From a virus (lineage: Duplodnaviria; Heunggongvirae; Uroviricota; Caudoviricetes), in IMG/VR virus record IMGVR_UViG_3300010368_000011, positions 1-64,000 of that record: a stretch of DNA of 64,000 nt; one strand, written 5' to 3'. The notes under the pieces are model-generated. The model ran no database searches. It saw only the letters and a program-made list of their open reading frames with translations, and was not told the DNA's origin. This document shows, one piece after another, positions 20,218 through 61,029 of the stretch (within the stretch, counting starts at the first letter, position 1; the number at the start of each line of letters is the position of its first letter). Made by a program: the position numbers and the translations under genes.

Positions 20218-20799
20218 ATGGAAACCAATATTGCAATAATCTGTAGAATGGCTGATTTGAATAATATGTCGGCTCCATTCCGCGTAGTGATTGAACCAAA
20301 TCCCACCGTAAAAAATCCACCAGTGATGTCACTGTGGCTTAATCGTGGTGATCTTACTGGTAGTTTTCACCATAAAGGTGATGTGTCTACATATTGGACT
20401 GCTCGGGTATCCAGAACCTATCTGTTGAATCAGGGGATTAAGTTGCACCATATTGCCAAACTCAAGACCCGTGCCGAAACCAGTATGGTGAACGAATGGT
20501 TGCATGTTCTGCGTGAAATTTCTTGCAGAGACGCATATCGCAAGTTTATACCAAACACTTGGCATAAAGGGCCACTTCAAAAATTGCTCTATGAAGTTGA
20601 AGATGAAGCCCTGTTGCGTTTCACCAAATCAAATCTGCGTGATATGAAGCGTCGGTTTGAAACTATTGGTAAACAGTTTGCGGCTTATCAAAAGGCGGCG
20701 ACTGATGAGGCCAAGGTGAAACAGCGCGAGGCTGCTCATGCGCAAATGGAAAAACGAAACCAAATCAGAGAGGAATTGAAACAAGGTCGATATTCTTGA
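20218..20799 (+). CDS. hypothetical protein (193 aa)
   Basis: ORF track. Confidence 0.5.
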   Translation: METNIAIICRMADLNNMSAPFRVVIEPNPTVKNPPVMSLWLNRGDLTGSFHHKGDVSTYWTARVSRTYLLNQGIKLHHIAKLKTRAETSMVNEWLHVLREISCRDAYRKFIPNTWHKGPLQKLLYEVEDEALLRFTKSNLRDMKRRFETIGKQFAAYQKAATDEAKVKQREAAHAQMEKRNQIREELKQGRYS

Positions 20800-21436
20800 T
20801 CGGAAAGTCCTTGTCTATCAATTCTTTCAAATCTGTGATCGTCATCGTGTAATCATCATCCGTTTTAAAGCGGAACAATGATGCATTGATATAAGTTTCG
20901 GTAAAACTTCCAGCTTCAACATCGATCAGATCAAACTTCACGGTTATGATCTGATCGTTGTCGTGTTTCATCATGGCATCCAGTAGTGCTTCACTGCATC
21001 CAGATCGAACACTCATCATGATACCTTGAAGATGATCATACTCGTGTTGAAAGATGCGAGCATCCATGTCTCTAAGAGTTTTCTCGACCGGTGACCCGTC
21101 AACGGTTTGATATTTCACATCGATTCGGTTAGGTCGCATGATATCATAAAGCACATTGTCTACGGATAGGCATCCTTCAATGAGTGATACCTTCTTTTTA
21201 CCACATGAAATGATTTCTGGATTACATACAGTATGAAATTCATATTTTGAATCACGATAGATGAAGACTTGTCGCAGTGATCCAATTTGAACAGCTGAAA
21301 TTCCAACCCCGTTTAACTCTGACATGGTTCGTAACAGTTGAGGAATCAAAAATTGTTCAAGCGTCGAGAAGTCAGTAACAGGTGACGACTTCTCGATTAA
21401 AACAGGATTCGGTGCTTTTTTAATTAACTGTTCCAT
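20765..21436 (-). CDS. def: peptide deformylase with ~85-aa C-terminal extension
   Basis: three PDF motifs GVGISAVQIG, EGCLS and QHEYDHLQG; start moved to ATG 21436 because the longer track ORF overlaps the divergent promoter/gene at 21455-21510. Confidence 0.8.
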   Translation of the reverse strand: MEQLIKKAPNPVLIEKSSPVTDFSTLEQFLIPQLLRTMSELNGVGISAVQIGSLRQVFIYRDSKYEFHTVCNPEIISCGKKKVSLIEGCLSVDNVLYDIMRPNRIDVKYQTVDGSPVEKTLRDMDARIFQHEYDHLQGIMMSVRSGCSEALLDAMMKHDNDQIITVKFDLIDVEAGSFTETYINASLFRFKTDDDYTMTITDLKELIDKDFPIKNIDLVSIPL

Positions 21437-21454
21437 GATCACTATATTTAACGG

Positions 21455-21483
21455 TTGACTTATTCTTATAACACGTTTATACA
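21455..21483 (+). promoter_or_regulatory. sigma70-like promoter (TTGACT-17-TATACA) followed by CAACGGGAGAG UTR box
   Basis: hexamers and spacing; member of repeated promoter-UTR cassette. Confidence 0.5.
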
Positions 21484-21509
21484 TAAAGTCAACAACGGGA
21501 GAGAAGATC

Positions 21510-21863
21510 ATGGCTAAGATTAATGCAACCATTTATTTCCTGACACGCGATTCTGATGAAATCAATCAGAACGGTTGGGAATGTGAAGCCGGTAAGAACT
21601 ATTGTGCGGCCCGGTTCGAGGGCGATATCACTCGTGGCGTCTATGAACCTGCGGCACGGATTGTTGCTGATGATCTTGATCCTGAAACCATTTGGGCGAT
21701 GACCCAAAATCTGGATACCCCTTGGTCTGATTTGGACCAGATCACGTGCATCACCGAATGCCCACGGTCCATGGATGTGTCCGATTATATCGTGTTCGAC
21801 CATGAGCCGAACGTTGCTTATGTTGTTGCCCCTGCTGGGTTCACCACCGTTACCTTGTACTAG
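21510..21863 (+). CDS. hypothetical protein (117 aa)
   Basis: ORF track; GGGAGAG RBS. Confidence 0.55.
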   Translation: MAKINATIYFLTRDSDEINQNGWECEAGKNYCAARFEGDITRGVYEPAARIVADDLDPETIWAMTQNLDTPWSDLDQITCITECPRSMDVSDYIVFDHEPNVAYVVAPAGFTTVTLY

Positions 21864-21871
21864 GAATTAAA

Positions 21872-22462
21872 ATGTTCACGCCTGTTTATATTGAAAACTT
21901 CCTGTCGCCGCCTGTGGCTGATGAAGTGTATCAAACTCTGATGACCGATCTGGATTGGGTCCACCGTGAGAATGTTCCTCGTAAGGAATATTGGGCAACC
22001 CTTAATAACCGTTCGTACACCTATGGCCGTGGCGTTGGAGTCAGAACCTATGATTCACAACCATCCCATGTGTACATTGAAGCGGTTCGTGACATGCTGG
22101 TGTCCATGAATGAAAAACATTCGTGGTCCGGTCGTTATGAAGGATGTTTCCTGAATCGTTATGATCATGGTCGCGACCAGCTTGGTTGGCATGCTGATGA
22201 TGATCCGGGTATTGATCATGATAATCCTATTGCTGTTGTTACCCTTGGTAATGCAAGAATGCTGCAATGGAAATTGATCAAGGACGCAGACGGTAATCCG
22301 GTCAAAGGGATGGATGCCATTAATGGTATCTTGCTGAAGCCGGGATCAGTCCTGTTTATGCCACCCGGTATGCAGGACGAATATTATCACAGGATTCCAA
22401 AGGCTGTTAGCCCGGAACCCGATGGTCCGAGAATTTCAATGACGTATCGGAGTTTGAAATGA
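21872..22462 (+). CDS. AlkB-like 2OG-Fe(II) oxygenase
   Basis: GWHADDD (HxD), later His in YYHRIP, C-terminal RISMTYR resembling AlkB RxxxTFR. Confidence 0.7.
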   Translation: MFTPVYIENFLSPPVADEVYQTLMTDLDWVHRENVPRKEYWATLNNRSYTYGRGVGVRTYDSQPSHVYIEAVRDMLVSMNEKHSWSGRYEGCFLNRYDHGRDQLGWHADDDPGIDHDNPIAVVTLGNARMLQWKLIKDADGNPVKGMDAINGILLKPGSVLFMPPGMQDEYYHRIPKAVSPEPDGPRISMTYRSLK

Positions 22463-22719
22463 AATATATATTGATGATTGTAGCTGTTATCGGTCTGATT
22501 GGTTGTTCGGCTGATAGTAATCATGATTACTATTTTCAAGATAGTGGTTTCCGTGTGTTCATTGATAGTGATACAGGGTGTGAATATGTATCGCGCACTC
22601 GATTCATTGGTTCATCTCGTAATATGTCACCGCGTTATGAAGCCGATGGCGTTCATGTTATGGGTTGCCGTGAATCAGATTATGCTCCTATGCCTGTTTA
22701 TGAAGGTGCATCAGAATAA
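22459..22719 (+). CDS. small lipoprotein (86 aa)
   Basis: signal peptide with lipobox LIGC. Confidence 0.5.
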   Translation: MKYILMIVAVIGLIGCSADSNHDYYFQDSGFRVFIDSDTGCEYVSRTRFIGSSRNMSPRYEADGVHVMGCRESDYAPMPVYEGASE

Positions 22720-22728
22720 TTTTTATTG

Positions 22729-22868: not shown

Positions 22869-22942
22869 AAACCGGTAGCTCAGTCTGGCAGAGCAGTGGA
22901 TTCTTACTCCATGTGCCGTGGGTTCAAATCCCACCCGGTTTA
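22869..22942 (+). tRNA. tRNA-Lys(CUU)
   Basis: cloverleaf: acceptor AAACCGG/CCGGTTT, anticodon stem GTGGA/TCCAT, loop TTCTTAC, T-arm GTGGGTTCAAATCCCAC, A73 + encoded CCA. Confidence 0.75.
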
Positions 22943-22978
22943 CCAACTTTATGAAATAGGAGATGACTTTATAATAAT

Positions 22979-23059
22979 GGACACGTTCCCGAGCGGTCAA
23001 AGGGAATTGGCTTTTAACCAATTGCGCAAGCTTCGTGGGTTCGAATCCCACCGTGTTCA
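22979..23059 (+). tRNA. class-II-shaped (Tyr-like scaffold) tRNA with apparent UUU anticodon
   Basis: acceptor GGACACG/CGTGTTC, D-arm TTCCCGAGCGGTCAAAGGGA as in bacterial tRNA-Tyr, perfect anticodon stem AATTGG/CCAATT with loop CUUUUAA, 12-nt variable region, canonical T-arm, A73-CCA. Confidence 0.5.
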
Positions 23060-23062
23060 CCA

Positions 23063-23671
23063 TTATCTTTCAAAGCGTTCAATTAATATTTGTAATCTAG
23101 CATAATTAGCGCCCTTAGCCGCCATATCTAAAGATTTGAGTGTTTGAAATATATTATCGTTTTTTAAATAAGCTGTATACATTTCTTTGTCGGTGTATCT
23201 ATTTTTATTACTTTGTTTGTTCCGTCCTCGCCACGTTGGGGTTATACTATGACAATTGGGACATATCATTTTAAGATTCGATCTATCGTTGTTATCTCTA
23301 TTACCATCAATGTGTTCTAATTCTAACGAAATAAAATGACCTTTCCATTCATCAATATAACAATCGTGGCATTTGTAATCTTGTTCATATAATAATCTTT
23401 CTCTAAGCATCTCATACTTCAGAGAGTTAAAGTCAAGGGACAATATATATTCTTTTCTTGGTGGCCTGATGCCTTTGGCGGTTTGTAGTCGAGTGATATC
23501 TTCATCTGATAACGTTCTACCTGTTGGTTTACCTTTTAATTTATCGCTAACCTTTTTGTTGATTTCTTCTCGTTTGTCCTTTGTAGAAGAACTTCTAGCG
23601 CAATGGCTGGAACAAAAACGGCCAGAGCCATATGTTCCGTCATGATCATTATTACATTTTTCGCAAGTCAA
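23063..23671 (-). CDS. HNH homing endonuclease (paralogue of 8867..9367)
   Basis: LEHIDGNRDNNDRSNLKMICPNCHS motif; TTG start with AGAGGA RBS. Confidence 0.75.
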   Translation of the reverse strand: MTCEKCNNDHDGTYGSGRFCSSHCARSSSTKDKREEINKKVSDKLKGKPTGRTLSDEDITRLQTAKGIRPPRKEYILSLDFNSLKYEMLRERLLYEQDYKCHDCYIDEWKGHFISLELEHIDGNRDNNDRSNLKMICPNCHSITPTWRGRNKQSNKNRYTDKEMYTAYLKNDNIFQTLKSLDMAAKGANYARLQILIERFER

Positions 23672-27249: not shown

Positions 27250-28044
27250 ATGTCACCGGACCTTGGCAATCGTATGAAGAATTACGAAGCGTTTGAAACG
27301 TGTCGTAGAGTTGATGGTTCTCGTCCGGTGTATGTTCGGCTTGATGGTCGCTCCTTCTCCACCTTCACCAGTGGCATGACGAAGCCGTTCGATCAACGGA
27401 TGACCGAAGCCATGAATGAAACCACCAAGTACATGGTGCAAAAAACCAATTCCGTTATCGGTTATGTTCAATCAGATGAAATCAGTTTGATGATCACACC
27501 GACAACCGATACATCTCAATTGATGTTTGGTGGCAAAGTTCATAAAATGGTTAGCGTTTTTGCATCCATGGCCACGGCGAAACTCAACGCGTGTATTCGT
27601 GGGTGGGATGGGTATGAAGATCGCCTGCCCTGCTTTGACGCCCGTGTGATGAACCTGCCTGACCGTATGGAAGCGGTGAACATGCTTCGTTGGCGTTATA
27701 TGGATTGCACTCGTAATGCTATTCAATCAATCGCCCAGTCTATGTTCGATCATGGTGAACTACAGGGCATACAAACGGTTGATCTTATTGAGAAAATCCG
27801 AATGGCGGGTGTTGATCCATATTCATTCCCAAGTCGCAGCATGTATGGATCGTTCGTGCGTAGTGAAAAAGAATATAAATCATTAACGCCAGCTGAGTTG
27901 GCCCATATTCCAGAACACAAGCGCCCAACTGGTCCGTTTTTGCGTAGCGTGCTTAAGGTATACTCGACTGATATGTTTATACAACTGGTCAATCCGGTTG
28001 AAGTGATTTTTGATAATGCGGTTCCTATAATCAATAAAAGTTGA
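27250..28044 (+). CDS. Thg1-like protein (tRNA-His guanylyltransferase / 3'-5' nucleotidyltransferase family)
   Basis: N-terminal NYEAFE...VYVRLDGRSFSTF, GYVQSDEIS, FGGKVHKMVSVFASMATAKLN, CFDARV...LRWRYMDCTRNA track the conserved Thg1/TLP blocks; GAGGGA RBS. Confidence 0.7.
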   Translation: MSPDLGNRMKNYEAFETCRRVDGSRPVYVRLDGRSFSTFTSGMTKPFDQRMTEAMNETTKYMVQKTNSVIGYVQSDEISLMITPTTDTSQLMFGGKVHKMVSVFASMATAKLNACIRGWDGYEDRLPCFDARVMNLPDRMEAVNMLRWRYMDCTRNAIQSIAQSMFDHGELQGIQTVDLIEKIRMAGVDPYSFPSRSMYGSFVRSEKEYKSLTPAELAHIPEHKRPTGPFLRSVLKVYSTDMFIQLVNPVEVIFDNAVPIINKS

Positions 28045-28095: not shown

Positions 28096-28419
28096 ATGAC
28101 TGATACGTTTTGGACTGGTCGTCGTGCAGAAGACGTTGCTGTTGCTAATAGCTTCGTTCCGATTACTGGTGCGACCCCTGTTACCGTGGTTGAAGAGTTT
28201 CGGACTTTCCAAAATGCGTATTACCGTTTCTATAATGATGGTGATCTTCCCAACTATCGCGCGATGACCCGTTTGGGCAAGGTTGTTTCTGTGGAATATG
28301 ACACCAGCCGCCGCGAACAATCTCTTGAGAATATTGGTGATGCCCTTCTTACGCGTGTCCTGACCGCCAAGAAGAACGGCACCATTGATCAAATTCCAAC
28401 CACACCGTTGGCACAATGA
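28096..28419 (+). CDS. hypothetical protein (107 aa)
   Basis: ORF track; promoter-like TTGACA at 28041. Confidence 0.5.
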   Translation: MTDTFWTGRRAEDVAVANSFVPITGATPVTVVEEFRTFQNAYYRFYNDGDLPNYRAMTRLGKVVSVEYDTSRREQSLENIGDALLTRVLTAKKNGTIDQIPTTPLAQ

Positions 28420-28934
28420 AACCTGTTCCACAACTTTCGGCAGAAGATCAAGTACGGGTAATGCCGGAACCGTTTTATGTTGGTTCGCCTCATAGCACGA
28501 TGGTGATGTTCGTTCTTTCGACAGAAGGTGAATTCGCACCAATTTTGCGTGATGGTTGTCGTCGCTTGGGTCGGTTCATCTTGCCACCGTTTCAACGGCC
28601 ACCAGTATGGACACAGGCACAACAAATCGCGTTGCTTGAAAGTATTTGGTTGGAGTTGCCTATTGGTTCGTTTGTTTATAACGCAAGCAACGATATGGAT
28701 GACGAATGTGATCAGTGGCTTATCGATGGCCAGCAACGAATCACAGCACTTCTTGCTTATGTCGCTGATGCGTTTCCGGTGTTTGGTTATCGGTATTCTG
28801 AACTCAGTGTTGTTGAGAAGCGTGGATTTTCTATGAAATCATTTCCATGCATCGAAACAAAAGACCAAAATCGTTGCGATCTGGAAAACATCTATAACCG
28901 GTTGGCATATGGCGGAACCCCGCATTCTCAATGA
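28416..28934 (+). CDS. DUF262 / ParB-like nuclease-domain protein
   Basis: LPPFQRPPVW...IDGQQRITAL pattern; GC-richer block. Confidence 0.55.
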   Translation: MKPVPQLSAEDQVRVMPEPFYVGSPHSTMVMFVLSTEGEFAPILRDGCRRLGRFILPPFQRPPVWTQAQQIALLESIWLELPIGSFVYNASNDMDDECDQWLIDGQQRITALLAYVADAFPVFGYRYSELSVVEKRGFSMKSFPCIETKDQNRCDLENIYNRLAYGGTPHSQ

Positions 28935-31035: not shown

Positions 31036-31467
31036 ATGTCATTGCAACATCTTAAAGACGAAGCTCTAAAGGCTCGTAAAGAAAAGAACAAAGCCCGTGC
31101 TGATGTGCTGGTAACCATGTTGTCTGATGTCAATATGGCTGGCAAGAATGAGCAACGTGAAGCAACTGATGCCGATGTAGCTATTATTGCTAAACGCTTC
31201 ATGAAGAACCTTGAGAAGACCAAGGCGCTACGTTCGTCACCAGAACTTCTTGAAGAAATCAGTGTTGTTCAGGAATTCATGCCAAAGGTGGCGTCGGCAC
31301 TAAGTCTTGATGATGCTATCGTTAAGGTCTTGACAGAACATTCTGACAAGATTAAAAAAGAAAATATCGGTTTCCTTGTTGGCCAAGTTATGAGAGCCTG
31401 TCAGGGAAAAGCCAACCCGAAAACCGCGAATGAAATGATTACTGCAAAAATTTCAGAAGCCGGTTGA
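31036..31467 (+). CDS. GatB/YqeY-domain protein (YqeY-like, 143 aa)
   Basis: architecture and C-terminal IGFLVGQVMRACQGKANPKTANEMI match the YqeY signature G.vMk...GkAd...v..lv; N-terminal MSLQHLKDEALKARK resembles B. subtilis YqeY start. Confidence 0.65.
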   Translation: MSLQHLKDEALKARKEKNKARADVLVTMLSDVNMAGKNEQREATDADVAIIAKRFMKNLEKTKALRSSPELLEEISVVQEFMPKVASALSLDDAIVKVLTEHSDKIKKENIGFLVGQVMRACQGKANPKTANEMITAKISEAG

Positions 31468-31690: not shown

Positions 31691-31762
31691 TGGACGTGTA
31701 ACTCAGTGGTAGAGTGGTTGTTTGAAGCACAGCAGGTCGGGAGTTCGATTCTCTCTGCGTCC
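31691..31762 (+). tRNA. tRNA-Phe(GAA)
   Basis: acceptor GGACGTG/TGCGTCC, anticodon stem GTTGT/ACAGC loop TTGAAGC, T-arm GGGAGTTCGATTCTCTC, A73, encoded CCA. Confidence 0.8.
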
Positions 31763-31901
31763 ACCAAATTTAGACGGCCCAAGAGGTAGCGACAAACCAT
31801 GCTATCGGAAGTTCTGGGTGTACATCAGGTTCGGATTGTCCGATTAAGTCCGAAATAATGGTCTGAACATCAAAGGTGTCGTGGCCGTCTAAAACATTAT
31901 T

Positions 31902-31975
31902 GGTTCCGTAGCTCAATTGGCTAGAGCAATGCGTTGTCTGCGCGAAGGTTGAGGGTTCGAGTCCCTTCGGAATCG
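31902..31975 (+). tRNA. tRNA-Asp(GUC) (anticodon-arm pairing imperfect)
   Basis: acceptor GGTTCCG/CGGAATC, D-arm GCTCAATTGGCTAGAGC, loop TTGTCTG, T-arm GAGGGTTCGAGTCCCTT, G73-CCA. Confidence 0.6.
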
Positions 31976-31983
31976 CCAATAAT

Positions 31984-32055
31984 AGTAGCATAACTCAGTG
32001 GAAGAGTTCTGACCTGATAAGTCAGCGGTCGTTGGTTCGAATCCAACTGCTACTA
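31984..32055 (+). tRNA. tRNA-Ile(GAU)
   Basis: acceptor AGTAGCA/TGCTACT, anticodon stem CTGAC/GTCAG loop CTGATAA, T-arm GTTGGTTCGAATCCAAC, A73-CCA. Confidence 0.8.
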
Positions 32056-32088
32056 CCAAAATAATCTCTAACGAGATTTACATAGCAT

Positions 32089-32161
32089 GATCCAGTCGTC
32101 TAATGGCTTAGGACGTTACCTTTTCACGGTGAAAATGCCAGTTCGATTCTGGTCTGGATTG
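32089..32161 (+). tRNA. tRNA-Glu(UUC)
   Basis: acceptor GATCCAG/CTGGATT, D-arm GTCTAATGGCTTAGGAC (Glu-like), anticodon stem TTACC/GGTGA loop TTTTCAC, T-arm GCCAGTTCGATTCTGGT, G73-CCA. Confidence 0.75.
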
Positions 32162-32188
32162 CCAAAAATAAAAAGAAGAGATAAGAAA

Positions 32189-32416
32189 ATGAAAACTTTT
32201 AATCAATGTAGACTAAGAAAAGAAAATAGTATTGTAGTTTCGTGGATTCCTTCGACGTTCGCCAAGGTCGGTAAGATCGTTGGACTGAAAGAAGGTGATA
32301 CATGGAATGAAGGATGGAAAGTTCTATCTGTTGGTGGTGCTATGACTGAACAACGTCTAAAGGAACAAGAACATCGTATTAGAAGTGGTGCACATCGCGC
32401 CGGGTCTGATATCTAA
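32189..32416 (+). CDS. hypothetical small protein (75 aa) inside tRNA array
   Basis: track ORF trimmed to ATG after AAGAAGAGATAAG; upstream part overlapped tRNA-Glu. Confidence 0.45.
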   Translation: MKTFNQCRLRKENSIVVSWIPSTFAKVGKIVGLKEGDTWNEGWKVLSVGGAMTEQRLKEQEHRIRSGAHRAGSDI

Positions 32417-32423
32417 ACGGTTT

Positions 32424-32496
32424 GCTCCGTTAGCTCAGCGGAAGAGCACCGGTTTACGAAACCGGGTTGTCGGGAGTTCGATTCTCTCACGGAGTA
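32424..32496 (+). tRNA. tRNA-Arg(ACG)
   Basis: acceptor GCTCCGT/ACGGAGT, anticodon stem CCGGT/ACCGG loop TTACGAA, T-arm GGGAGTTCGATTCTCTC, A73-CCA. Confidence 0.75.
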
Positions 32497-32651
32497 CCAA
32501 GTTTGAGGCGGAAGTGTAAAAGAATCTTAATCGTGTCGATTGTACAAAGCACACGAGGTCCGGTTCCCAAGACATGATCATGTTGTTGGTATGATTGACC
32601 GTAACGAAGTCGGGTGAAAATCCCACCGTCTCAGCCAAAACGGAGTACCAT

Positions 32652-32722
32652 TCTAGCGAAGTGTTGTGGCTGCACGCTTGATTGTGGATCAAGAAGATCG
32701 GGTTCGAGTCCCGGCGTTAGGA
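32652..32722 (+). tRNA. tRNA-His(GUG), no genomically encoded G-1 (position -1 is T), A73
   Basis: acceptor TCTAGCG/CGTTAGG, D-arm GTGTTGTGGCTGCAC, anticodon stem CTTGA/TCAAG loop TTGTGGA, T-arm TCGGGTTCGAGTCCCGG, A then CCA. Confidence 0.65.
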
Positions 32723-32731
32723 CCAAATAAA

Positions 32732-32804
32732 GTCTTCGTAGCTTAATGGATAGAGCGGTTGAATTCGAATCAATCAGGTGGGAGTTCGAGTCTCTCCGAG
32801 GACA
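32732..32804 (+). tRNA. tRNA-Arg(UCG)
   Basis: acceptor GTCTTCG/CGAGGAC, D-arm GCTTAATGGATAGAGC, anticodon stem GTTGA/TCAAT loop ATTCGAA, T-arm GGGAGTTCGAGTCTCTC, A73-CCA. Confidence 0.7.
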
Positions 32805-32807
32805 CCA

Positions 32808-33360: not shown

Positions 33361-33497
33361 ATCTATTGACAAATCATAACATCCGTATATGATAAATATC
33401 AACAATGGGAGAGAATACTATGCGTTTATCTATTGACAAATCATAACATCCGTATATGATAAATATCAACAATGGGAGAGAATACTATGCGTTTATC
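33361..33497 (+). repeat. tandem direct duplication (2 x ~67 bp) of promoter-UTR-start-codon cassette
   Basis: CTATTGACAAATCATAACATCCGTATATGATAAATATCAACAATGGGAGAGAATACTATGCGTTTAT occurs twice back to back; copy 1 gives an 8-codon ORF, copy 2 starts gene 33487. Confidence 0.7.
33433..33461 (+). promoter_or_regulatory. sigma70-like promoter in second repeat copy (TTGACA...ATGATA) with GGGAGAG UTR box
   Basis: hexamers; identical copy at 33366. Confidence 0.4.
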
Positions 33498-33712: not shown

Positions 33713-34459
33713 TTGATAAATATCTATATGAAAATTCAACATCTATTCGAACGGATTGGTAAAGAACCAAAAAACATCGCAAAGCGGTTGAAGAAGCTGC
33801 CTGATTATTCCGGGCTTTCTGATTATCGCAGGATGTCGAAACTGGATGAATGGATTCAATCAGCATTATCAGATGCCGTTTTGATTTCAGATGAAAGCAA
33901 GTTTGCGATGGTGTACCGGTCAAACGGTTATATCATCCGTGTTACACATCGAATTGATCCGGGTTATGAACAATGGGTGAAATATTCGAACACCATTAAA
34001 TCCCCACATGTCCCAGAATATTATTTGTCATTTCGATATGCTAAGACCAAGAACACTGTGACCATCATGGAAGAACTAACTCCACTGGACAAGAAAACAT
34101 ATAAAACCGTTGAGAACTTATGGGAACAAAACTTTACTCCCGCTGTTAATAAGTTCATTCAAAGCAATGCTTCATTCATGGCTGTTTATGAAATGGTTGA
34201 AGAATGGTCAAAGAGTGTTAGACTAGGCAGACACGTTAATGTGTTCGGTGTGAAGGCCGGTGGAGTAAGAGTGGGTTTTGATGCCCATGGAGATAATATA
34301 ATGAAGCGTGGCAACACACTGGTCATCACTGATCCTATATCATATGATTTGAATGACCTTCATAAACTGAACGAAGGTATTGATGATGATCTATCAGATA
34401 TCGAAATCATTTATATGAACCCTGAATTAGAACAAGGGTTAGACGATGAAAGTCAATGA
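33713..34459 (+). CDS. hypothetical protein (248 aa)
   Basis: ORF track. Confidence 0.55.
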   Translation: MINIYMKIQHLFERIGKEPKNIAKRLKKLPDYSGLSDYRRMSKLDEWIQSALSDAVLISDESKFAMVYRSNGYIIRVTHRIDPGYEQWVKYSNTIKSPHVPEYYLSFRYAKTKNTVTIMEELTPLDKKTYKTVENLWEQNFTPAVNKFIQSNASFMAVYEMVEEWSKSVRLGRHVNVFGVKAGGVRVGFDAHGDNIMKRGNTLVITDPISYDLNDLHKLNEGIDDDLSDIEIIYMNPELEQGLDDESQ

Positions 34460-34760
34460 TCTATACGAAGGCGAACAATATCGCCTTAAGGATTTGTGTC
34501 AGGTAGCCACAGAATTTCCTGAAGCGAATTTCTGGATCACTCGCCGTGGATCAGAACAATCTGTTGGTTCCGTCTCGAAAGAATATAATCCAGAATCATT
34601 CGGAATAGGTATCAATCGTCCTGATATCATCGTTGGTGACTATTTGTATTATGCGTTGATGAACCTACACGCACAAGGCTACTGGCGTGGAAAAGCCAAG
34701 GGCGTATTGAAGTTGGTTCACATCAAAAAGAGTGATATTGAAGATATTGTAATTGGTTAA
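34446..34760 (+). CDS. hypothetical protein (104 aa)
   Basis: ORF track. Confidence 0.5.
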   Translation: MKVNDLYEGEQYRLKDLCQVATEFPEANFWITRRGSEQSVGSVSKEYNPESFGIGINRPDIIVGDYLYYALMNLHAQGYWRGKAKGVLKLVHIKKSDIEDIVIG

Positions 34761-40444: not shown

Positions 40445-40518
40445 TCCTCGCGGTCCAGAAAGGCACTGGAGTCAGGCTGTTAACCTGAATGCTGTAGGTT
40501 CGAATCCTACGCGGGGAG
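40445..40518 (+). tRNA. tRNA-Asn(GUU)
   Basis: acceptor TCCTCGC/GCGGGGA, D-arm TCCAGAAAGGCACTGGA, anticodon stem TCAGG/CCTGA loop CTGTTAA, T-arm GTAGGTTCGAATCCTAC, G73-CCA. Confidence 0.75.
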
Positions 40519-40529
40519 CCAATCATTGT

Positions 40530-40602: not shown

Positions 40603-40629
40603 CCACTTCTTTCATTTGAGGAAAACATC

Positions 40630-43679: not shown

Positions 43680-44700
43680 TACATATCCGCGAAGCCTGCT
43701 AAATATGTTCTCAACGAATGAGTGCTCTCGGTTTTACCGCCGCTGAGAAAAATAAAAAAAAGTGCAGTGACAGGGTTTACAGATCGAAAAAACCTGTTAT
43801 ATATACATCTTCATGACGCGGGGCCGCAAGCCGCCACGTTGTTACTAGAGGCCACGATGCTTCTAGATATATGTTATAATGAATGGGCGGTATAGCGTCC
43901 ATTAAGAATAAGTCGAGTAATCGACCCAAAGCAGGGGTTACATCTCTGCACCACCGTAAGGATGGCTCATCTATACAAGTCCAAGTCTGCCGGTAACGGT
44001 GTGTCTTCACAAAGGCACGAAGCAGTAAAAACAGGTTAATGAGATTCGAGGCCAACTGGTTAGAATCGTTCAAGGGTAGCTCCTTTGAGTAATTAACACA
44101 GCAACTGTTTGAATGTGAAGACTAATGGATAGTGATCTAGTATCTTCTTCGGGAGATATTATAGTCCGAACCTTAGCGGGACAGGGCGGGTCGCAATGTT
44201 AAAGGCATGGAGTTGGTGATGTAATAGTCATCAAATACGTGTTCTTGAAACATGGTTTAGTAGTCTTAGCGGGCGAAAAACAGGAGGCGTGTTGTATTTT
44301 GACTCTAACAAGGGTCGAAGCAACTGGATTAGCACGTCTTAGTAATTGCAAAGAAACCACTCCAAGGTAACAAAAAGCAAAGTCTAATCCATCGTTGTAT
44401 GAAAGGTGCTTAAAGCCTTACCCCTCGGGGAATAAGGTGCGCCGGAGGTCGCAAGCCGAAGGTGTTTGTTGGAGAAAGTTTCATAGCCATTTAGCGATGG
44501 TTAACTGTTGTAAAAGGCAGATGGGACAGAAACCAATGAGTAGTACAGCGTGATAGATGAAACGCCACATCTTAAAAAAGGCAGCACTGGTGGATACAGG
44601 AAGACCTTAACCGGCTCCTGTGGATGTGAAATTAACAAGCGGGTGCAACTGCTTGGTACGATTTGAAGGCCACTATTTTTGCCGCTAGTCTCACGGCGAA
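43680..44700. ncRNA. candidate large structured RNA (about 1 kb, ORF-free, GC-enriched, many GNRA/UUCG-type hairpins); strand undetermined
   Basis: no plausible ORF on either strand over ~1 kb in an otherwise gene-dense phage; local GC visibly higher than flanks; ends at repeated 34-nt hairpin 44703..44736. Confidence 0.4.
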
Positions 44701-44702: not shown

Positions 44703-44736
44703 AATGAAAGCCCTCGGTTAATAGCCGGGGGCTTTC
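44703..44736. repeat. 34-nt hairpin element, copy 2 (identical to 27144..27177); abuts the stop codon of 44735..45634
   Basis: exact repeat; 12-bp stem. Confidence 0.6.
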
Positions 44737-45634
44737 ACTGTTTGGGTTCATCATATTTCTTTCTGATGTATTCAATTATGTCAGCGGATTTTCGCAACCC
44801 TAATTTCTTACACAACACCGTGAACTCGTTGGACTTCATGTTCTTCTTGCGAGAATTATGAATGGTGGAATCAAGTGATCTAACATGATCACCAACGTGC
44901 CACGGATGATCTAGTATATTATTCTTAATTCGGCGCGCATCTTTCGATAGGGTGACATGTAATGGCGCTGATAATAATTCCACATATGGCTTCAGATAAT
45001 TCACAGTGATGCCATGATACCTATCACTCGTGTCTACCGATGAATCACTCTTAAGCCGTGATAGATCAGTCAGCGCTTTAGCTTTATTGCGACTATTATA
45101 TGCATCAGCATTATCATAAACCGACACGGGTATATTATTCTTCTTCGCGGCGATGATGATCTTACGTATTTTGGATTTCTGTTTTTCGGAACCGGTGTCC
45201 TGATTCTTGTCCATCTTGTCCAAGTTTGCGTACAGGTGAATTTCGGTTATATATTTTACGGCGTTAGGAATAGCAGGCTTGTCTGAGAAGATACGATCTT
45301 CTGATTCGAACTTATCAGGCCGCGTTGTGCGAAATGATGGACCCCAATAATCAATAGGCTTTCCGGTAAAACCGTCTGCCATCAGTTTTTGTCCATCCAG
45401 CACAACATATCCAGCACTACTGGCATGGCGAATATCACGCTCATAAAAGCCGGATAGGGTTCTGGTAGTTGATAGATAAAAGGGTTCACCGCCAGAAAAA
45501 TCATTTTCCGAACTGGTTCCCATATCACTGGTGAGAATGAATTGATTATCATCAAGGATCGATAGCATACTGAACACATCGGTTCGGTGGAACAATATAG
45601 AACTGATGCCTTCTAATAGTTGGTTAATTTTCAT
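44735..45634 (-). CDS. hypothetical protein (299 aa), member of MKI(N/Q)QL(L/F)E tandem paralogue family
   Basis: ORF track; N-terminus shared with 45631..46017 and 46022..46501. Confidence 0.55.
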   Translation of the reverse strand: MKINQLLEGISSILFHRTDVFSMLSILDDNQFILTSDMGTSSENDFSGGEPFYLSTTRTLSGFYERDIRHASSAGYVVLDGQKLMADGFTGKPIDYWGPSFRTTRPDKFESEDRIFSDKPAIPNAVKYITEIHLYANLDKMDKNQDTGSEKQKSKIRKIIIAAKKNNIPVSVYDNADAYNSRNKAKALTDLSRLKSDSSVDTSDRYHGITVNYLKPYVELLSAPLHVTLSKDARRIKNNILDHPWHVGDHVRSLDSTIHNSRKKNMKSNEFTVLCKKLGLRKSADIIEYIRKKYDEPKQ

Positions 45635-46017
45635 GGATCACCATGAATATCAATACAGGTGACGCCCGGACCATAAGCACGAACAATGGTTGGTGTATGT
45701 CGGGCAAGATCGGTCATTGTTTCGTGAACTTCACCATCATCAACATCCTGTTGTCTACAGGCTAAGCAATCTGTATATGCATACAGTGAATATCCACATA
45801 ATGGTATGCTACGAGAATATGTGATGCCTTGTTCTTGTTTGAATTCATCGTGAATATAGATGTATGGATTGAAAACGTAGAAATTACCTTCTTGATCAAC
45901 CACGGCTCTGGCAAAGTGTTCAACTCGTTTACTGAGAAATGATTGAAGCCGCCTTGAAGAAGGGTTCTTCATGAATGCGTCATTTTCAAATAATTCGAAG
46001 AGTTGTTGGATTTTCAT
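45631..46017 (-). CDS. hypothetical protein (128 aa), MKIQQLFE family
   Basis: ORF track. Confidence 0.5.
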   Translation of the reverse strand: MKIQQLFELFENDAFMKNPSSRRLQSFLSKRVEHFARAVVDQEGNFYVFNPYIYIHDEFKQEQGITYSRSIPLCGYSLYAYTDCLACRQQDVDDGEVHETMTDLARHTPTIVRAYGPGVTCIDIHGDP

Positions 46018-46021
46018 AATT

Positions 46022-46501
46022 CTAATCTTTGATATTTAGTTTAGAGTAAGATAATATTTTATCCATCTGATCAATGATATCAAATGATTCATCTTCTTCT
46101 AATGCAATGATGCCTTCTGAAATCCGTTTCCGTTCCAAATCGATCCTTATTATGTATTGGTCTATATTTTCTATTACTTCCGTTGCGATAACTTCTTCAG
46201 CTTCATCGTAACTCGCGTGGCCGTTAATTCTATCATTGTATTGAATTATCTTATATCTATTTCTTAATTTATTGGTGTCAAATACAAAGATACCACCCAA
46301 CCCGTATTCTTCATGATTATGAGTGAACCTTTCTGCTACCTTATAGTCTCTGGTTGTCCTAATACCGTGTGGCTCGCCCGGAAGGCCGAAATATTCCCCT
46401 TCGCTCATCGTGTTTGTTAATATAATATTGCAGGTAGAATAAAAATCAGTACCATGGAACAATGGTTGTCTGTTATTTTCGAAGAGTTGCTGGATTTTCA
46501 T
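46022..46501 (-). CDS. hypothetical protein (159 aa), MKIQQLFE family
   Basis: ORF track. Confidence 0.5.
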   Translation of the reverse strand: MKIQQLFENNRQPLFHGTDFYSTCNIILTNTMSEGEYFGLPGEPHGIRTTRDYKVAERFTHNHEEYGLGGIFVFDTNKLRNRYKIIQYNDRINGHASYDEAEEVIATEVIENIDQYIIRIDLERKRISEGIIALEEDESFDIIDQMDKILSYSKLNIKD

Positions 46502-55249: not shown

Positions 55250-55576
55250 ATGAGTGATAAAGATTATTTTTACTGGGTTCGAAACCCTTACGAATACGTT
55301 ACAGACAAGATGTGTCTTCCCGTTTCACAAGATAAATTCAGTAATTTGTTCAGCATGGGATCAAACTTTAATGGGTTTGATGCATGGGATCATTTGAGTT
55401 TTATCATGTGTCTTCCACAATGGGCGGATGAATATGTTAATTTCTCATTAGGACCGCTTGCTGTGGCTCTTAAAGAGAAAGACCTTATTCTCGTGTCTTA
55501 CACATGGAGTCGTTGGTCACGTTGTATGAACGAATTGATGCAGGTATCATTGATAGATCACTTCATCGTAAAATAG
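55250..55576 (+). CDS. hypothetical protein (108 aa), overlaps next gene by 73 nt in another frame
   Basis: trimmed to ATG after AGGAAGTGGG. Confidence 0.45.
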   Translation: MSDKDYFYWVRNPYEYVTDKMCLPVSQDKFSNLFSMGSNFNGFDAWDHLSFIMCLPQWADEYVNFSLGPLAVALKEKDLILVSYTWSRWSRCMNELMQVSLIDHFIVK

Positions 55577-55929
55577 AGTTTGATCTTCTTGAAAATTTTA
55601 ATGAACGTTGGGCAGCTTTAATACAAGCCGAAGAAATTCAATTAATAGAAGATGGGAATTTCCATAGTCCTACTCCATCATTCGAAATGGCATTTTGGGA
55701 ATCAGTCACCACGGTATGTCGTGAAGAGATGTCCGCATCAAGTGGTGATGAAATGGATGATATGATTGCTTCTCTTATCGAGAATAACATTGACCAGTGG
55801 AATGCCGCCAAACAAAAACCCAAATTGGCTAACTGGTTTGTTGGACAGGTAATGAAGGAATCTCAGGGCAAGGCTGATGCTGCCACGGTTCGCGAAAAAA
55901 TATCCACACTATTAAATCAAGATGGTTGA
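55504..55929 (+). CDS. GatB/YqeY-domain protein (second YqeY-like paralogue)
   Basis: C-terminal LANWFVGQVMKESQGKADAATVREKISTLL matches YqeY signature and the C-terminus of 31036..31467. Confidence 0.55.
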   Translation: MESLVTLYERIDAGIIDRSLHRKIEFDLLENFNERWAALIQAEEIQLIEDGNFHSPTPSFEMAFWESVTTVCREEMSASSGDEMDDMIASLIENNIDQWNAAKQKPKLANWFVGQVMKESQGKADAATVREKISTLLNQDG

Positions 55930-55965: not shown

Positions 55966-56040
55966 ATGGGTGTAGCTCAGTCTGGCTAGAGCATCGGCCT
56001 CCAAACCCGAGTGTCGGGGGTTCGAATCCCTCCACCCATG
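55966..56040 (+). tRNA. tRNA-Trp(CCA) (one C:C mismatch closing the anticodon stem)
   Basis: acceptor ATGGGTG/CACCCAT, D-arm GCTCAGTCTGGCTAGAGC, loop CTCCAAA, T-arm GGGGGTTCGAATCCCTC, G73-CCA. Confidence 0.7.
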
Positions 56041-56063
56041 CCAATTCCTTCAAGGAAAACATT

Positions 56064-56533: not shown

Positions 56534-56535
56534 GA

Positions 56536-57395: not shown

Positions 57396-57468
57396 GGGGG
57401 CGTAGCTCAGTTGGGAGAGCGCAACACTTGCAATGTTGAGGTCGTCGGTTCGATCCCGTCCGCTTCCA
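57396..57468 (+). tRNA. tRNA-Ala(UGC)
   Basis: acceptor GGGGGCG/CGCTTCC with G3:U70, anticodon stem CAACA/TGTTG loop CTTGCAA, T-loop TTCGATC, A73-CCA. Confidence 0.75.
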
Positions 57469-57493
57469 CCAAACTTTATGATGGAATATAAAA

Positions 57494-58161: not shown

Positions 58162-58163
58162 TT

Positions 58164-58666: not shown

Positions 58667-58678
58667 CGGATAAACAAA

Positions 58679-58951
58679 TTAACCCCGTTTGTACGGGGTT
58701 AATTTTAATCGGTCCATTCCTTCTACAAGCACTTCGATTTCGGTTGAGAATTTAATTGTCTCTTCCTCTTTGATCTTTTGTTGAATAGGTTTCATCCGTT
58801 CATTAACAAGCTGATCAATCTCGTTGCGGATAGATTTTAATCTCGCATCCATGCGGAAGTATTCGGGCGGTGTGCACTCATTGCAACTACCAAAACCAAT
58901 ACCCATGGATGCGCCGCAGTTATTGCATTCATAATGTGCCATTGTATTCAT
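58679..58951 (-). CDS. small zinc-ribbon protein (about 90 aa)
   Basis: CNNC...CNEC motifs; start trimmed to avoid overlap with 58929..59402. Confidence 0.4.
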   Translation of the reverse strand: MNTMAHYECNNCGASMGIGFGSCNECTPPEYFRMDARLKSIRNEIDQLVNERMKPIQQKIKEEETIKFSTEIEVLVEGMDRLKLTPYKRG

Positions 58952-59402
58952 ACCAATCGTTAGCAAACATATCGACTTGAGATGGTGACCATACCATGAT
59001 CGATCCATTGGATAAAGTCATATCGATATGAGCATTATAATCAACACTGACGCCATCACCAAGGATGGACAGAAGCGGTTCACGGTTCACCGTAAAGGTT
59101 GATCCATCCACCTTGAAAATGAATGGTGATCGTTCTTCATCTAACCAAGCGCGACGAGAAACCCGCTTGCCTTCTTTAACAGCAGCGAGTGCCCATTCCA
59201 TCGTGTTGCTATAGCGCTTTGCAGTTTCAATCGTCACACCATGTAATTCCTTGCGATCAATCACGAAAAGATCGAAACTATCAGGACACGCGAACTGAAC
59301 ATAGTTCACATTCTTTTCATCATATCGATCCAGCATATAGAAAATTTCATATTCATCCGTTAGGATGGTTATGTTATCTGATGATATATATTCATTTAAC
59401 AT
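58929..59402 (-). CDS. hypothetical protein (157 aa)
   Basis: ORF track. Confidence 0.5.
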   Translation of the reverse strand: MLNEYISSDNITILTDEYEIFYMLDRYDEKNVNYVQFACPDSFDLFVIDRKELHGVTIETAKRYSNTMEWALAAVKEGKRVSRRAWLDEERSPFIFKVDGSTFTVNREPLLSILGDGVSVDYNAHIDMTLSNGSIMVWSPSQVDMFANDWYEYNGTL

Positions 59403-59809
59403 TTTTTGCCACCATCTTTCATTCTGTTTTCAACTTTATGATCGGCGCGGTTCTGATTGTACCGCAACTTGTCTACCATGGCTTGACCAACCGGTAATCC
59501 AAATCCACCGGCATAATCAAAAAGACGAATCAACACATCCGCCAGTTCAACAGTTTCCATTGAATACTGTGGTAAATGATCGTCCGGTAATCCTTTACGA
59601 ACACCTTCCATAGCTTCAGCCACTTCAGTGACCATCAGCATAAGCATTTCGCCTTTGTTGCGTTCCAATGGTTCACCCGTCTCTAGGTTCGTCCACCAGC
59701 CACCACGGGCCGATAATCCATAACACAATTCACTTAATGAATTAATCCATTCACCCTGCCCGTCTGTAATTTCAAGATCGGTGGATGCTGGTTTAGCTGC
59801 TATTGTCAT
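59396..59809 (-). CDS. mazG: MazG-like nucleoside triphosphate pyrophosphohydrolase
   Basis: EVAEAMEGVRK...ELADVLIRLFDYAGGFG...KLRYNQNR pattern of MazG/NTP-PPase fold. Confidence 0.7.
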   Translation of the reverse strand: MTIAAKPASTDLEITDGQGEWINSLSELCYGLSARGGWWTNLETGEPLERNKGEMLMLMVTEVAEAMEGVRKGLPDDHLPQYSMETVELADVLIRLFDYAGGFGLPVGQAMVDKLRYNQNRADHKVENRMKDGGKKC

Positions 59810-59862
59810 ATTAATCTCCTTCGACCAGTATCATAGGATAAATAGGTCAAAGGGTTCATGTG

Positions 59863-60516
59863 ATGCATCTAATTAATTTGTTTGAAGATAGCGGTTTGAA
59901 ATTATACCGTGGAGATTCAGAACATTATACAAAGTTTGATACATCACATAGTTGGGGAAGCTTATACGGAAAACTGATATATCTAACCAGTGATCAAACA
60001 ATAGCGATGGATTATGGTAATTGGATCACAACCATTACACTTGATAGAACATATATATCAAAAACCATTAATACCGAAGTCCCAATGAATGAACATCTTC
60101 TTGGGGTCATTAATGAATATCTTGGTGATAGACATTGTGATCTTCGTTACTGGGTGAACGGTTCGGACCAACGGGCTAGGAATTTTGCCGATTGGGTTGA
60201 AGGTTTCAAAACCCGTGGATCGAGATATGCATGGATGGGCCATGATATTGGTGGCAAAGGTCTTGCACCAACTCTTGATGAATTATTAGTAGGTAGCCAT
60301 TTTGGATATTATTTGAGAGATGGCGGTATAGATGGACTCCCGCCGCTTTATGAAGTGCTTGCTTCAGCCGGGTATACCGGTTTGAATTATGTTGGCGGTG
60401 TCAATCAATCAGGTGGTGAGGCCAAGCGTGGTGGTGGCAATCATAGACATTTTGTATATGCAATGTTTGATTTCGATTATTGTAACAAGCATATAACATC
60501 ACAAGATCAAATTTAA
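59863..60516 (+). CDS. hypothetical protein (217 aa); weak ADP-ribosyltransferase-like motifs (LYRG, YLTSD)
   Basis: ORF track trimmed to ATG; motif resemblance only. Confidence 0.45.
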   Translation: MHLINLFEDSGLKLYRGDSEHYTKFDTSHSWGSLYGKLIYLTSDQTIAMDYGNWITTITLDRTYISKTINTEVPMNEHLLGVINEYLGDRHCDLRYWVNGSDQRARNFADWVEGFKTRGSRYAWMGHDIGGKGLAPTLDELLVGSHFGYYLRDGGIDGLPPLYEVLASAGYTGLNYVGGVNQSGGEAKRGGGNHRHFVYAMFDFDYCNKHITSQDQI

Positions 60517-60517
60517 G

Positions 60518-60853
60518 TTAATCGTTAACTGGATCGTTAATCACATCAACCGTGTGTGGTCTACAGGAAACGCCGTCCATCTCTCTGAACGTCACTTGCT
60601 TGACTATTACGTCATTATAAAACCACCGATATCCAGATATGGCTCTAGTATTATCCAATGGATGTATGGTATCTGATCTATCTGCAATCCAACCACGTTG
60701 GGCGGCTTGATGACACTCTATCAAATCGGTTAGTTCTTGTGGATGCTGCGGTTTATTAGCGAGTATGTGAACGATTACCACAATACATGTAGTGATCCAA
60801 ATGAATCCCACTAGTTTACCAAATGCGGTAATTCGATTATTTTCGGTTAGCAT
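60518..60853 (-). CDS. hypothetical membrane protein (111 aa)
   Basis: ORF track; TM segment. Confidence 0.45.
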   Translation of the reverse strand: MLTENNRITAFGKLVGFIWITTCIVVIVHILANKPQHPQELTDLIECHQAAQRGWIADRSDTIHPLDNTRAISGYRWFYNDVIVKQVTFREMDGVSCRPHTVDVINDPVND

Positions 60854-60875
60854 TTGGTTATCTTTCTGAAAGTGG

Positions 60876-60947
60876 TTGGCGATACTGGGTTCGAACCAGT
60901 GACCTCTTCGATGTCAACGAAGCATTCTCCCACTGAACTAATCGCCA
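60876..60947 (-). tRNA. tRNA-Val(GAC)
   Basis: acceptor TGGCGAT/ATCGCCA, anticodon stem CTTCG/CGAAG loop TTGACAT, T-arm ACTGGTTCGAACCCAGT, A73, CCA encoded. Confidence 0.75.
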
Positions 60948-60957
60948 TTAAGATTGG

Positions 60958-61029
60958 TAGTCGGTGAGAGATTCGAACTCCCGACATCCTCGGTGTAAAC
61001 GAGGCGCTCTCCCGCTGAGCTAACCGACC
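60958..61029 (-). tRNA. tRNA-Val(UAC)
   Basis: acceptor GGTCGGT/ACCGACT, anticodon stem CCTCG/CGAGG loop TTTACAC, T-arm GGGAGTTCGAATCTCTC, A73, CCA encoded. Confidence 0.75.

Follow-up and report, generated by a model that had tools for sequence, protein, structure and literature searches.

Programmed recoding within release-factor genes has so far been the textbook case of prfB only, the gene for bacterial release factor 2 (RF2), which adjusts its own level through a frameshift, whereas release factor 1 (RF1) is without such feedback (PMC12421855). A survey of 12,753 genomes published in 2025 found no programmed site in prfA and no UAG (RF1-specific stop) variant in any prfB motif (PMC12421855). 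On the phage side, huge phages encode peptide deformylase, RF1/RF2, and transfer-messenger RNA (tmRNA) (PMC7162821), jumbo phages sporadically bear Thg1, PTH2, and a CCA-adding enzyme as tRNA repair functions (PMC7824862), and tRNA arrays bear HNH endonucleases, RF-1, Pth, and tmRNA (PMC5966550). The locus described here lies in the first 64,000 nucleotides (positions 1 to 64,000, the whole stretch analysed and hereafter the window) of the Caudoviricetes record IMGVR_UViG_3300010368_000011 and contains an RF1-type gene that is without domain 1 and is crossed by an early in-frame TGA. It seems moderately probable that RF2 activity gates the production of this RF1-type factor through the early UGA, and that the other translation-related cargo of the phage consists of independent accessory units. 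What stands out is a family of recoded RF1-type genes and its connection to GOLLD RNA; the cargo does exist, but it is scattered and of a familiar kind.

The gene at the center of this account is the following:

47537-46869, minus strand: gene for a release factor of the RF1 type that lacks domain 1 and bears the motifs PPT and GGQ (start codon ATG at 47537, stop codon TAA at 46869)
47438-47436, minus strand: in-frame TGA of this gene, codon 34

The anatomy of the gene was observed directly. The ATG is preceded by the Shine–Dalgarno sequence AAGGAGG and lies only 63 nt from the upstream stop, and after 33 codons the frame meets the TGA (cggttcGGT TGA A), beyond which frame 0 stays open through PPT and GGQ. 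The window DNA was recovered from three other assemblies at 100% identity, and the TGA is identical in all three. An early in-frame TGA is thus what the gene has in common with prfB, but the remainder of the prfB-type cassette (GGGGG, a 3-nt spacer, CTTT, a C after the TGA, and +1 continuation) was not found in it. The product matches the Pfam families RF-1 (1.3e-16) and PCRF (2.3e-16) and starts at a residue aligned to position 90 of Thermotoga maritima RF1 or 112-113 of Escherichia coli RF1, so that domain 1 (~100 residues) is missing. The preliminary description of this DNA had named it an RF1/PrfH-like factor; the first half of that name holds, with PDB matches of 4e-40 to RF1 and ~1e-13 to RF2, whereas a PrfH identity was rejected because PrfH is matched at 3.5e-6 over the GGQ domain only and the PxT-type decoding motif is kept. 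RtcB had no match in Pfam or PHROG scans of the window. Both PPT and GGQ are invariant in the family alignment and, judging from the PPT motif and from the pocket for the third base, in which the Gln and Thr of RF1 are kept, the factor would read UAA and UAG.

The recoding site was found throughout the family, with an early in-frame TGA in 11 of 11 phage or metagenome lineages checked at the DNA level. It occupies the same codon as in the window in L001, L003/L005, L009/L010, L011/L012, L013, L014/L015, L018, and L019, and is moved by a few codons in L016 and L017. In the 635-kb phage LR745206, two in-frame TGAs lie slightly further downstream. The TGA codon of the window aligns with a conserved Trp of T. 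maritima RF1, and in L016 the TGA comes four codons later and TGG is kept at the Trp position; it is from this canonical RF1 alignment and the TGG of L016 that we infer Trp as the residue restored. Homologues that appeared intact, with Trp at the site, were rejected as proof of a change from TGG to TGA, as their genes contain a TGA and had been translated under code 4; this applies to L013, L014/L015, L016, L018, L019, and LR745206. Nine of the 11 lineages have an A directly after the UGA and the other two a C, and A after UGA is a context reported to favour read-through by normal tRNA-Trp.

Within the 33 codons before the TGA, synonymous differences exceed non-synonymous ones in three comparisons (8:5, 7:6, and 11:4). 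Moreover, the structural model of a family member (P0007; predicted local distance difference test score, pLDDT, 89.8) has an RF1-like fold, which Foldseek aligns to ribosome-bound RF1 with template modelling scores of 0.84-0.89, and the residues before the TGA form a strand (2-11) and a helix (14-33) with pLDDT of at least 90. The segment before the TGA therefore belongs to the protein, given the synonymous excess, the core strand and helix of the model, and the match to the RF1 fold.

The family extends to bacteria. A scan of 185,579 species genomes returned loci that, with a few exceptions, sort into three groups: canonical full-length RF1s that have PPT by chance, keep domain 1, and have no TGA; 15 short loci with an in-frame TGA, whose carriers include Thalassospira xianhensis, Jiella, Pararhizobium, Rhodovibrio sodomensis, metagenome-assembled genomes (MAGs) of Sphingomonas, and a Cupriavidus plasmid; and nine short loci in which the first ~35-50 codons end in CTT-TGA-C (G in one) and the rest lies in the +1 frame. 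These nine loci (L118, L124, L130, L144, L149, L163, L166, L170, and L173), all bacterial, are the only family members with a prfB-like +1 cassette. GGGG(G) usually stands three nucleotides upstream of their CTT-TGA, and they bear every element of the prfB cassette as defined in PMC12421855, at a site within domain 2. In Thiobacillus denitrificans, the +1-joined product aligns unbroken to RF1 (4e-42, versus 4e-26 for RF2), and the gene lies within a 31-tRNA array, adjoining tRNA-Trp. Moreover, at one short locus (L104, from a Hahella MAG) the +1 junction reads CTT-TAG-C in place of CTT-TGA-C. Cultured carriers are T. denitrificans DSM 12475, Achromobacter anxifer LMG 26857, T. xianhensis, and R. 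sodomensis.

Close to the RF gene lies a GOLLD RNA, listed here with its upstream neighbour and two further RNAs of the phage:

44284-44697, plus strand: conserved 3' domain of a GOLLD RNA (Rfam RF02032, 168.6 bits against a gathering score of 150, model positions 1-416 of 416)
43311-43673, plus strand: protein of 120 amino acids directly upstream of GOLLD, with a weak DarT-like N-terminus (E 0.072)
55966-56043, plus strand: tRNA-Trp(CCA), a UGA reader by near-cognate pairing (ARAGORN, Rfam; kept in L001)
L181 5975-6334, same phage, ~3 kb past the right window edge: permuted tmRNA with the tag AASNDNAPSEVRIAA (ARAGORN only)

GOLLD forms a 14-mer nanocage, its function is unknown, and tRNAs have been reported in the linkers of some members (PMC12286853). 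The 5' domain of the window copy probably starts near 43.7 kb, and the L001 homologue of the 120-residue protein lies on the opposite side of GOLLD. In L001 and L003-L005, a GOLLD located ~2 kb from the RF gene holds in its linker a tRNA-like element with the anticodon UCA and canonical D- and T-arms. Compared with tRNA-Trp genes, this tRNA(UCA) shows no particular resemblance, and its discriminator is A or U; an IMG/VR search for it matched just one known relative. Divergent phages with the same RF family bear alpha-type permuted tmRNAs (L009, 9450-9855; L011, 1562-1972), and that of L009 immediately precedes the RF gene. In L011 there are also a tRNA(CUA), a UAG reader (17014-17092), PTH2, a CCA-adding enzyme, and ClpP. 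Two ART-PolyVal proteins lie further on from the L181 tmRNA.

In the proposed circuit, the full RF1-type factor would be made only if the ribosome decodes the early UGA rather than terminating at it. As UGA would be recognised by host RF2 only, and completion needs the bypass of this RF2-only codon, RF1-type output should rise when RF2 is limiting relative to the UGA-decoding tRNA. The decoder could be a near-cognate tRNA-Trp supplied by the phage, whose position 24, checked for a Hirsh-type D-arm change, is a G paired with C11, and in relatives it could be the tRNA(UCA) of the neighbouring GOLLD. A translation-boosting mobile element would in this way bring RF1 activity wired to the same insufficient-termination signal, and it may bring its own RF1 activity because RF2 self-corrects and RF1 does not. 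A more far-reaching version, in which the RF1-type factor is the output of a mobile circuit sensing termination capacity and GOLLD carries or releases the UGA-decoding tRNA that sets its amount, can be put forward only tentatively and has a small chance of being right. If true, GOLLD would for the first time be tied to a function, the decoding of stop codons, and mobile elements would be seen to subject RF1 activity to a control like that of prfB.

Several points weigh against gating by RF2. We infer, rather than observe, the read-through as Trp, the codon specificity of the factor, the sensing of RF2, and the physiological role; RF1-type output under an RF2-specific codon is not classical autoregulation, and the rationale for it is speculative. 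The window GOLLD is without the embedded tRNA(UCA) of its relatives, no tRNA(UCA) was found in the 64 kb or in ~10 kb past the right edge, and the element in the relatives, with its imperfect acceptor stem and without an encoded CCA, may be non-functional as a tRNA. Two short-form bacterial lineages (L132/L142/L143 and L145) have no recoding site. RNA structure downstream of the UGA is inconsistent across lineages (z from +0.5 to -2.5), for which reason a conserved read-through-stimulating hairpin was rejected. Finally, the 64 kb examined are part of ~317 kb, and TGA-containing late genes elsewhere in the genome are possible.

The translation-related cargo on which the preliminary description had centered comprises, apart from the RF gene, these protein genes:

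10907-11449, minus strand: NYN-domain protein, predicted ribonuclease (Pfam PF01936, 1.7e-19, 71.2 bits against a cut-off of 24.2)
11591-12091, plus strand: HAD phosphatase of the "Swiss Army Knife" RNA-repair type (Pfam HAD_SAK_2, 8.6e-15), divergent from the NYN gene
20765-21532, minus strand: peptide deformylase (Pfam 2.1e-36; phrog_2890, 1.7e-32)
21872-22462, plus strand: AlkB-like 2-oxoglutarate-Fe(II) oxygenase (Pfam 2OG-FeII_Oxy_2, 7.4e-17; phrog_21963, "alkylated DNA repair", 4.4e-59)
27250-28044, plus strand: Thg1-like protein, predicted 3'-5' nucleotidyl transferase (Pfam Thg1, 3.8e-28; phrog_4717, 1.7e-70)
31036-31467, plus strand: first YqeY/GatB-domain protein (Pfam 3.5e-8, 34 bits against a cut-off of 27; phrog_1460, 1.5e-18)
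55504-55929, plus strand: second YqeY/GatB-domain protein (Pfam GatB_Yqey, 1.1e-12, 48.5 bits against a cut-off of 27, C-terminal 59 residues only)

Most of the domain calls made earlier from the letters alone were borne out by profile searches, the exceptions being the PrfH label and the tRNA count (16 rather than 18). The peptide deformylase, with its three catalytic motifs GVGISAVQ, EGCLS, and HEYDH legible, belongs to a family very common in viruses (480 IMG/VR relatives). The Thg1-like enzyme is likewise as described, and is of the bacterial Thg1-like protein (TLP) subtype, matching the Bacillus thuringiensis TLP (PDB 4kgk) at 1.3e-33 versus ~1e-9 for eukaryotic Thg1; its nearest phage homologues are found in giant phages of Alphaproteobacteria, and an IMG/VR search with Thg1 returned no match. 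The gene stops at a TGA and is followed in the same frame by an open reading frame (ORF) at 28096-28419, with 124 codons up to the next stop, probably by chance. Both YqeY/GatB-domain proteins, also as described, score above the curated cut-off for PF09424 or PF02637; the first lies 225 nt upstream of a seven-tRNA cluster and the second 37 nt upstream of tRNA-Trp. The predicted NYN ribonuclease, said to sit by a tRNA within a 40-kb stretch, does have its domain, but it lies ~10 kb outside that range, 533 nt upstream of a split tRNA-Leu(UAA); among ORFs adjoining tRNAs inside the range, there was no NYN support even at E up to 10. The AlkB-like oxygenase, the HAD_SAK_2 protein, GOLLD, the in-frame TGA of the RF gene, and the tmRNA were absent from the earlier account.

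The tRNA genes and the homing endonucleases nearest to them are, in addition to tRNA-Trp:

9429-10374, minus strand: tRNA-Leu(UAA), interrupted within its anticodon loop by an intron of 861 nt (ARAGORN, introns allowed)
9581-10168: LAGLIDADG homing-endonuclease ORF within this intron (Pfam LAGLIDADG_2, 4.5e-25)
22869-22945, plus strand: tRNA-Lys(CUU) (ARAGORN; Rfam 66.7 bits)
22979-23062, plus strand: class-II-shaped tRNA of 84 nt with anticodon UUU (ARAGORN; Rfam 55.7 bits; folds with a long variable arm)
23063-23671, minus strand: HNH homing endonuclease abutting the tRNA-Lys pair (phrog_14736, 4.8e-25)
31692-32807, plus strand: seven tRNAs, Phe, Asp, Ile, Glu, Arg(ACG), His, and Arg(UCG) (ARAGORN, Rfam)
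40445-40605, plus strand: two tRNA-Asn(GUU) (ARAGORN, Rfam; position kept in L001)
57396-57471, plus strand: tRNA-Ala(UGC) (ARAGORN, Rfam)
60873-61029, minus strand: tRNA-Val(GAC) and tRNA-Val(UAC) (ARAGORN, Rfam; kept in L001)

These genes span 12 amino acids. Fifteen were found alike by ARAGORN and Rfam and one more when introns were allowed, short of the 18 claimed, and a lenient Rfam scan of the window recovered none of three further tRNAs. The intron of tRNA-Leu(UAA) inserts after the first anticodon base, the exons rebuild the tRNA, and a partial Rfam Intron_gpI match lies at 10214-10291 (33 bits against a gathering score of 50); in cyanobacteria and plastids, the classic trnL intron occupies this site, and its presence in a phage is unusual. 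The class-II-shaped tRNA with a Lys-type anticodon reported earlier is indeed present: its variable region, UGCGCAAGCUUC, exceeds 10 nt and has its own stem, its D-stem has 3 bp, and its variable arm, UGCGCAAGC, matches that of tRNA-Tyr(GUA) of relative L001. By comparison with E. coli tRNAs, its D-arm presumably matches tRNA-Tyr and its anticodon arm resembles tRNA-Lys, and on these sequence likenesses it is read as a tRNA-Tyr-like body with a tRNA-Lys-like anticodon arm. An IMG/VR search by D-arm and anticodon pattern returned no other Tyr-bodied tRNA(UUU). The tRNA-His (32652-32725, plus strand), 4.6 kb downstream of the Thg1-like gene, has the discriminator A73, a first pair U1·G72, and a T at -1, hence no encoded G-1, which fits either TLP action on tRNA-His or a host among the Alphaproteobacteria that can do without G-1.

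The source phage is a jumbo myovirus of ~317-335 kb: contigs of up to 317 kb occur in the cluster records, the nearest distinct relative is a 335.5-kb IMG/VR contig, and profile searches identified a gp15-like sheath stabiliser, sheath, tube, a head-closure protein, and a cell-wall hydrolase. The GC content of the window is ~41%, and alphaproteobacterial signatures suggest Alphaproteobacteria as the host group. The tail sheath (785 amino acids) has a best identity of at most 35% to the jumbo phages Phosso, PA5oct, RaK2, and Atu_ph07, and the isolated-phage collection held no DNA match or near-identical relative for the window (sheath ≤35%, RF ≤41% identical). Other features of the window are these:

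3-5742, minus strand: ORF of >1,913 amino acids, open at the left window edge, without a Pfam match
28416-28934, plus strand: short protein with an N-terminal DUF262/GmrSD_N domain only (7.7e-16)
58929-59402, minus strand: Tad2-like (Thoeris anti-defence 2) protein (5.7e-14; kept in L001)
59396-59809, minus strand: MazG-like pyrophosphatase adjoining the Tad2-like gene (phrog_5658, 3.5e-54; kept in L001)

The first of these goes unreported by the ORF-listing tool, hence the region seemed non-coding at first; stop-codon recoding was ruled out as the cause of the ORF-poor first 5.7 kb, which this single ORF crossing the window edge accounts for. Several ORFs, at 44735-46501 (minus strand), 33713-34760 (plus strand), and 59860-60516 (plus strand), begin with MKIQQLFE, MKINQLLEG, or alike and may form a paralogous family, with no profile match for any. 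In addition, a promoter-like TTGACA-16-TATGAT site occurs twice, identical and 67 bp apart, in an intergenic gap at 33366-33460 (plus strand), which suggests a short tandem repeat.

The rival explanations concern either the recoded gene or the cargo around it. The RF family is systematically mis-annotated, being translated under code 4 or split by gene callers into ORFs of 33-35 and 166-186 amino acids, and in-frame start codons lie few codons past the TGA, as might be expected if the gene were a pseudogene or if a 33-residue peptide and a re-initiated C-terminal protein were the real products. This is very improbable, as purifying selection acts on both sides of the TGA, the downstream "start" codons vary in position, the strand and helix before the UGA are integral to the RF1 fold, and the site is kept across lineages just 41-70% identical. 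The TGA at a Trp codon and the proximity of RF1-type factor and tRNA(UCA) in L001 and L003-L005 also recall the TGA-recoded Jade phages, a precedent (10.1101/2021.08.26.457843) in which RF1 and a UGA-suppressor tRNA would switch the cell to TGA as Trp late, for late and lysis genes; the RF gene would then be one recoded gene of several. Such a code change is quite unlikely here. Outside the RF gene the standard code was observed: 26 of the 68 window ORFs of at least 100 amino acids (38%) end in TGA, coding density is 0.76-0.85 under code 11 and code 4 adds only 0.04-0.05, the sheath and tube genes are in the standard code, and comparisons across the window, L001, L005, L009, L011, and L017 revealed no other gene with a conserved in-frame TGA, so that genome-wide code 4 was rejected. 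Furthermore, ARAGORN (introns included) and Pfam scans found neither a tRNA(UCA) nor a tryptophanyl-tRNA synthetase (TrpRS) in the window, the genes of the Jade-phage module are themselves in the standard code, and bacterial members use a +1 frameshift at the UGA, which is unrelated to code change.

As for the surroundings, the preliminary description had seen one coordinated module for taking over or repairing translation, which would maintain or reprogram the host tRNA pool and termination, for instance against anticodon nucleases or tRNA depletion. TLP, NYN with HAD_SAK_2, the AlkB-like protein, and two tRNA-Lys genes are plausible for tRNA repair or replacement, tRNA-Lys is a known target of host nucleases, from whose host form the Tyr-bodied tRNA(UUU) would differ in look, and the concept is in print for jumbo phages (PMC7824862). 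Nevertheless, this reading is unlikely, as the cargo forms ~10 islands on both strands from 9.4 to 61 kb (52 kb), and between them lie tail sheath, tail tube, and gp15-like genes, five homing endonucleases, the Tad2-like protein, and the MazG-like pyrophosphatase. Scans of the window revealed no T4-type countermeasure to anticodon nucleases (Pnk and RNA ligase, or RtcB), and the tRNA set covers 12 amino acids rather than a few nuclease targets. Synteny gives a divided answer: the right-hand half keeps its order in the 335-kb relative (tRNA-Asn, GOLLD, RF, sheath, tRNA-Trp, tRNA-Ala, and tRNA-Val), but no close counterpart of the peptide deformylase or the Thg1-like gene was found there, and the second YqeY gene is absent at its tRNA-Trp locus. 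Of the claim that cargo genes sit directly beside tRNA clusters and early sigma70-type promoters, the first part stands, three protein genes lying upstream of tRNA clusters on the same strand; promoter enrichment was rejected, since the number of such sites does not exceed what shuffling of the sequence yields (45 versus 37.7±7.0 expected; 50 versus 54.7±6.4). A few good matches do lie just upstream of the first YqeY gene, the RF gene, and the second YqeY gene. The islands are independent accessory units of the "tRNA-array" kind, not one operon, and combine tRNA genes flanked by homing endonucleases with factors for supply, maturation, or repair of the translation machinery. It could also be that tRNA arrays and their passengers (RF-1, Pth, tmRNA, and GOLLD) accrete passively, spread by homing endonucleases and kept by codon usage or near-neutrally, the UGA serving to throttle a potentially toxic RF to a low level. 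The five homing endonucleases abut tRNA islands, the RF gene occurs in unrelated neighbourhoods (it is the sole gene common to L009 and L011 within ±10 kb), such passengers have been noted in tRNA arrays (PMC5966550), and RF1 overexpression lowers fitness (PMC12421855). Passive accretion is unlikely all the same, for a weak ribosome-binding site would suffice as a throttle whereas the RF gene has the strong AAGGAGG, the recoding site persists or has arisen anew at >30 loci, in three forms, and one of these forms is a complete prfB-type sensor cassette.

Gating of the RF1-type factor by RF2 would concern an RF1-type paralogue of phages, tRNA arrays, and a plasmid in which an early stop occurs in three forms, namely read-through, prfB-like +1 frameshift, and one UAG case. 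No paper describing such a recoded RF1-type gene was found in the open-access literature, and the short PPT-type release factor with a UGA is apparently an undescribed family. The adjacent GOLLD with its tRNA(UCA) is, moreover, a testable lead on GOLLD function.

Among known systems, the translation cargo of the window is a further example of an already described jumbo-phage and tRNA-array phenomenon, which extends to tRNAs, peptide deformylase, RF1/RF2, tmRNA, Thg1, PTH2, the CCA-adding enzyme, and HNH endonucleases; the corresponding reports (PMC7162821, PMC7824862, and PMC5966550) are without the recoding of the RF gene, the PPT clade lacking domain 1, or the link between GOLLD, tRNA(UCA), and RF found here. 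Like known GOLLD RNAs (RF02032), the window copy is a full-length match, phage-encoded, and near tRNA islands, and its relatives have a linker tRNA; the difference is that the anticodon of this linker tRNA is UCA and that the gene beside it depends on the decoding of a UGA, while the window copy has lost the tRNA. PrfH, the partner of RtcB, is also a class-I release-factor homologue without domain 1, but the window factor keeps the PxT-type decoding motif and no RtcB accompanies it in the window.

The A1 protein of Qβ arises through leaky UGA read-through by tRNA-Trp. As in the window gene, the UGA is followed by A, would be read at a low level by normal tRNA-Trp, and yields a longer phage product; here, however, read-through would be needed for the only functional product and would put back a conserved Trp instead of extending the C-terminus. 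The Jade-phage module of suppressor tRNA, TrpRS, and RF1 resembles L001 and L003-L005 in that a phage RF1 adjoins a UGA-decoding tRNA, whereas the phages described here keep the standard code, in which TGA is a stop, searches revealed no TrpRS, the UGA lies within the RF1 gene, and the tRNA sits in GOLLD RNA and is missing from the window phage.

As in the +1 frameshift of prfB, a gene for a class-I release factor is interrupted early by an in-frame UGA in this family, and its bacterial members contain the cassette itself (SD-like GGGG(G), a spacer of 3 nt, CTTT, TGA, and a C). In both cases, expression must rely on the failure of RF2 to stop translation at the UGA. Nevertheless, the product here is RF1-type (PPT; RF1 4e-40) and without domain 1, the site lies at about codon 34-46 in domain 2 instead of codon 26 in domain 1, and phage members continue in the same frame, by read-through and not by frameshift. 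Moreover, whereas RF2 adjusts its own synthesis, the factor described here is probably blind to UGA, which would make the regulation a cross-regulation rather than an autoregulation.

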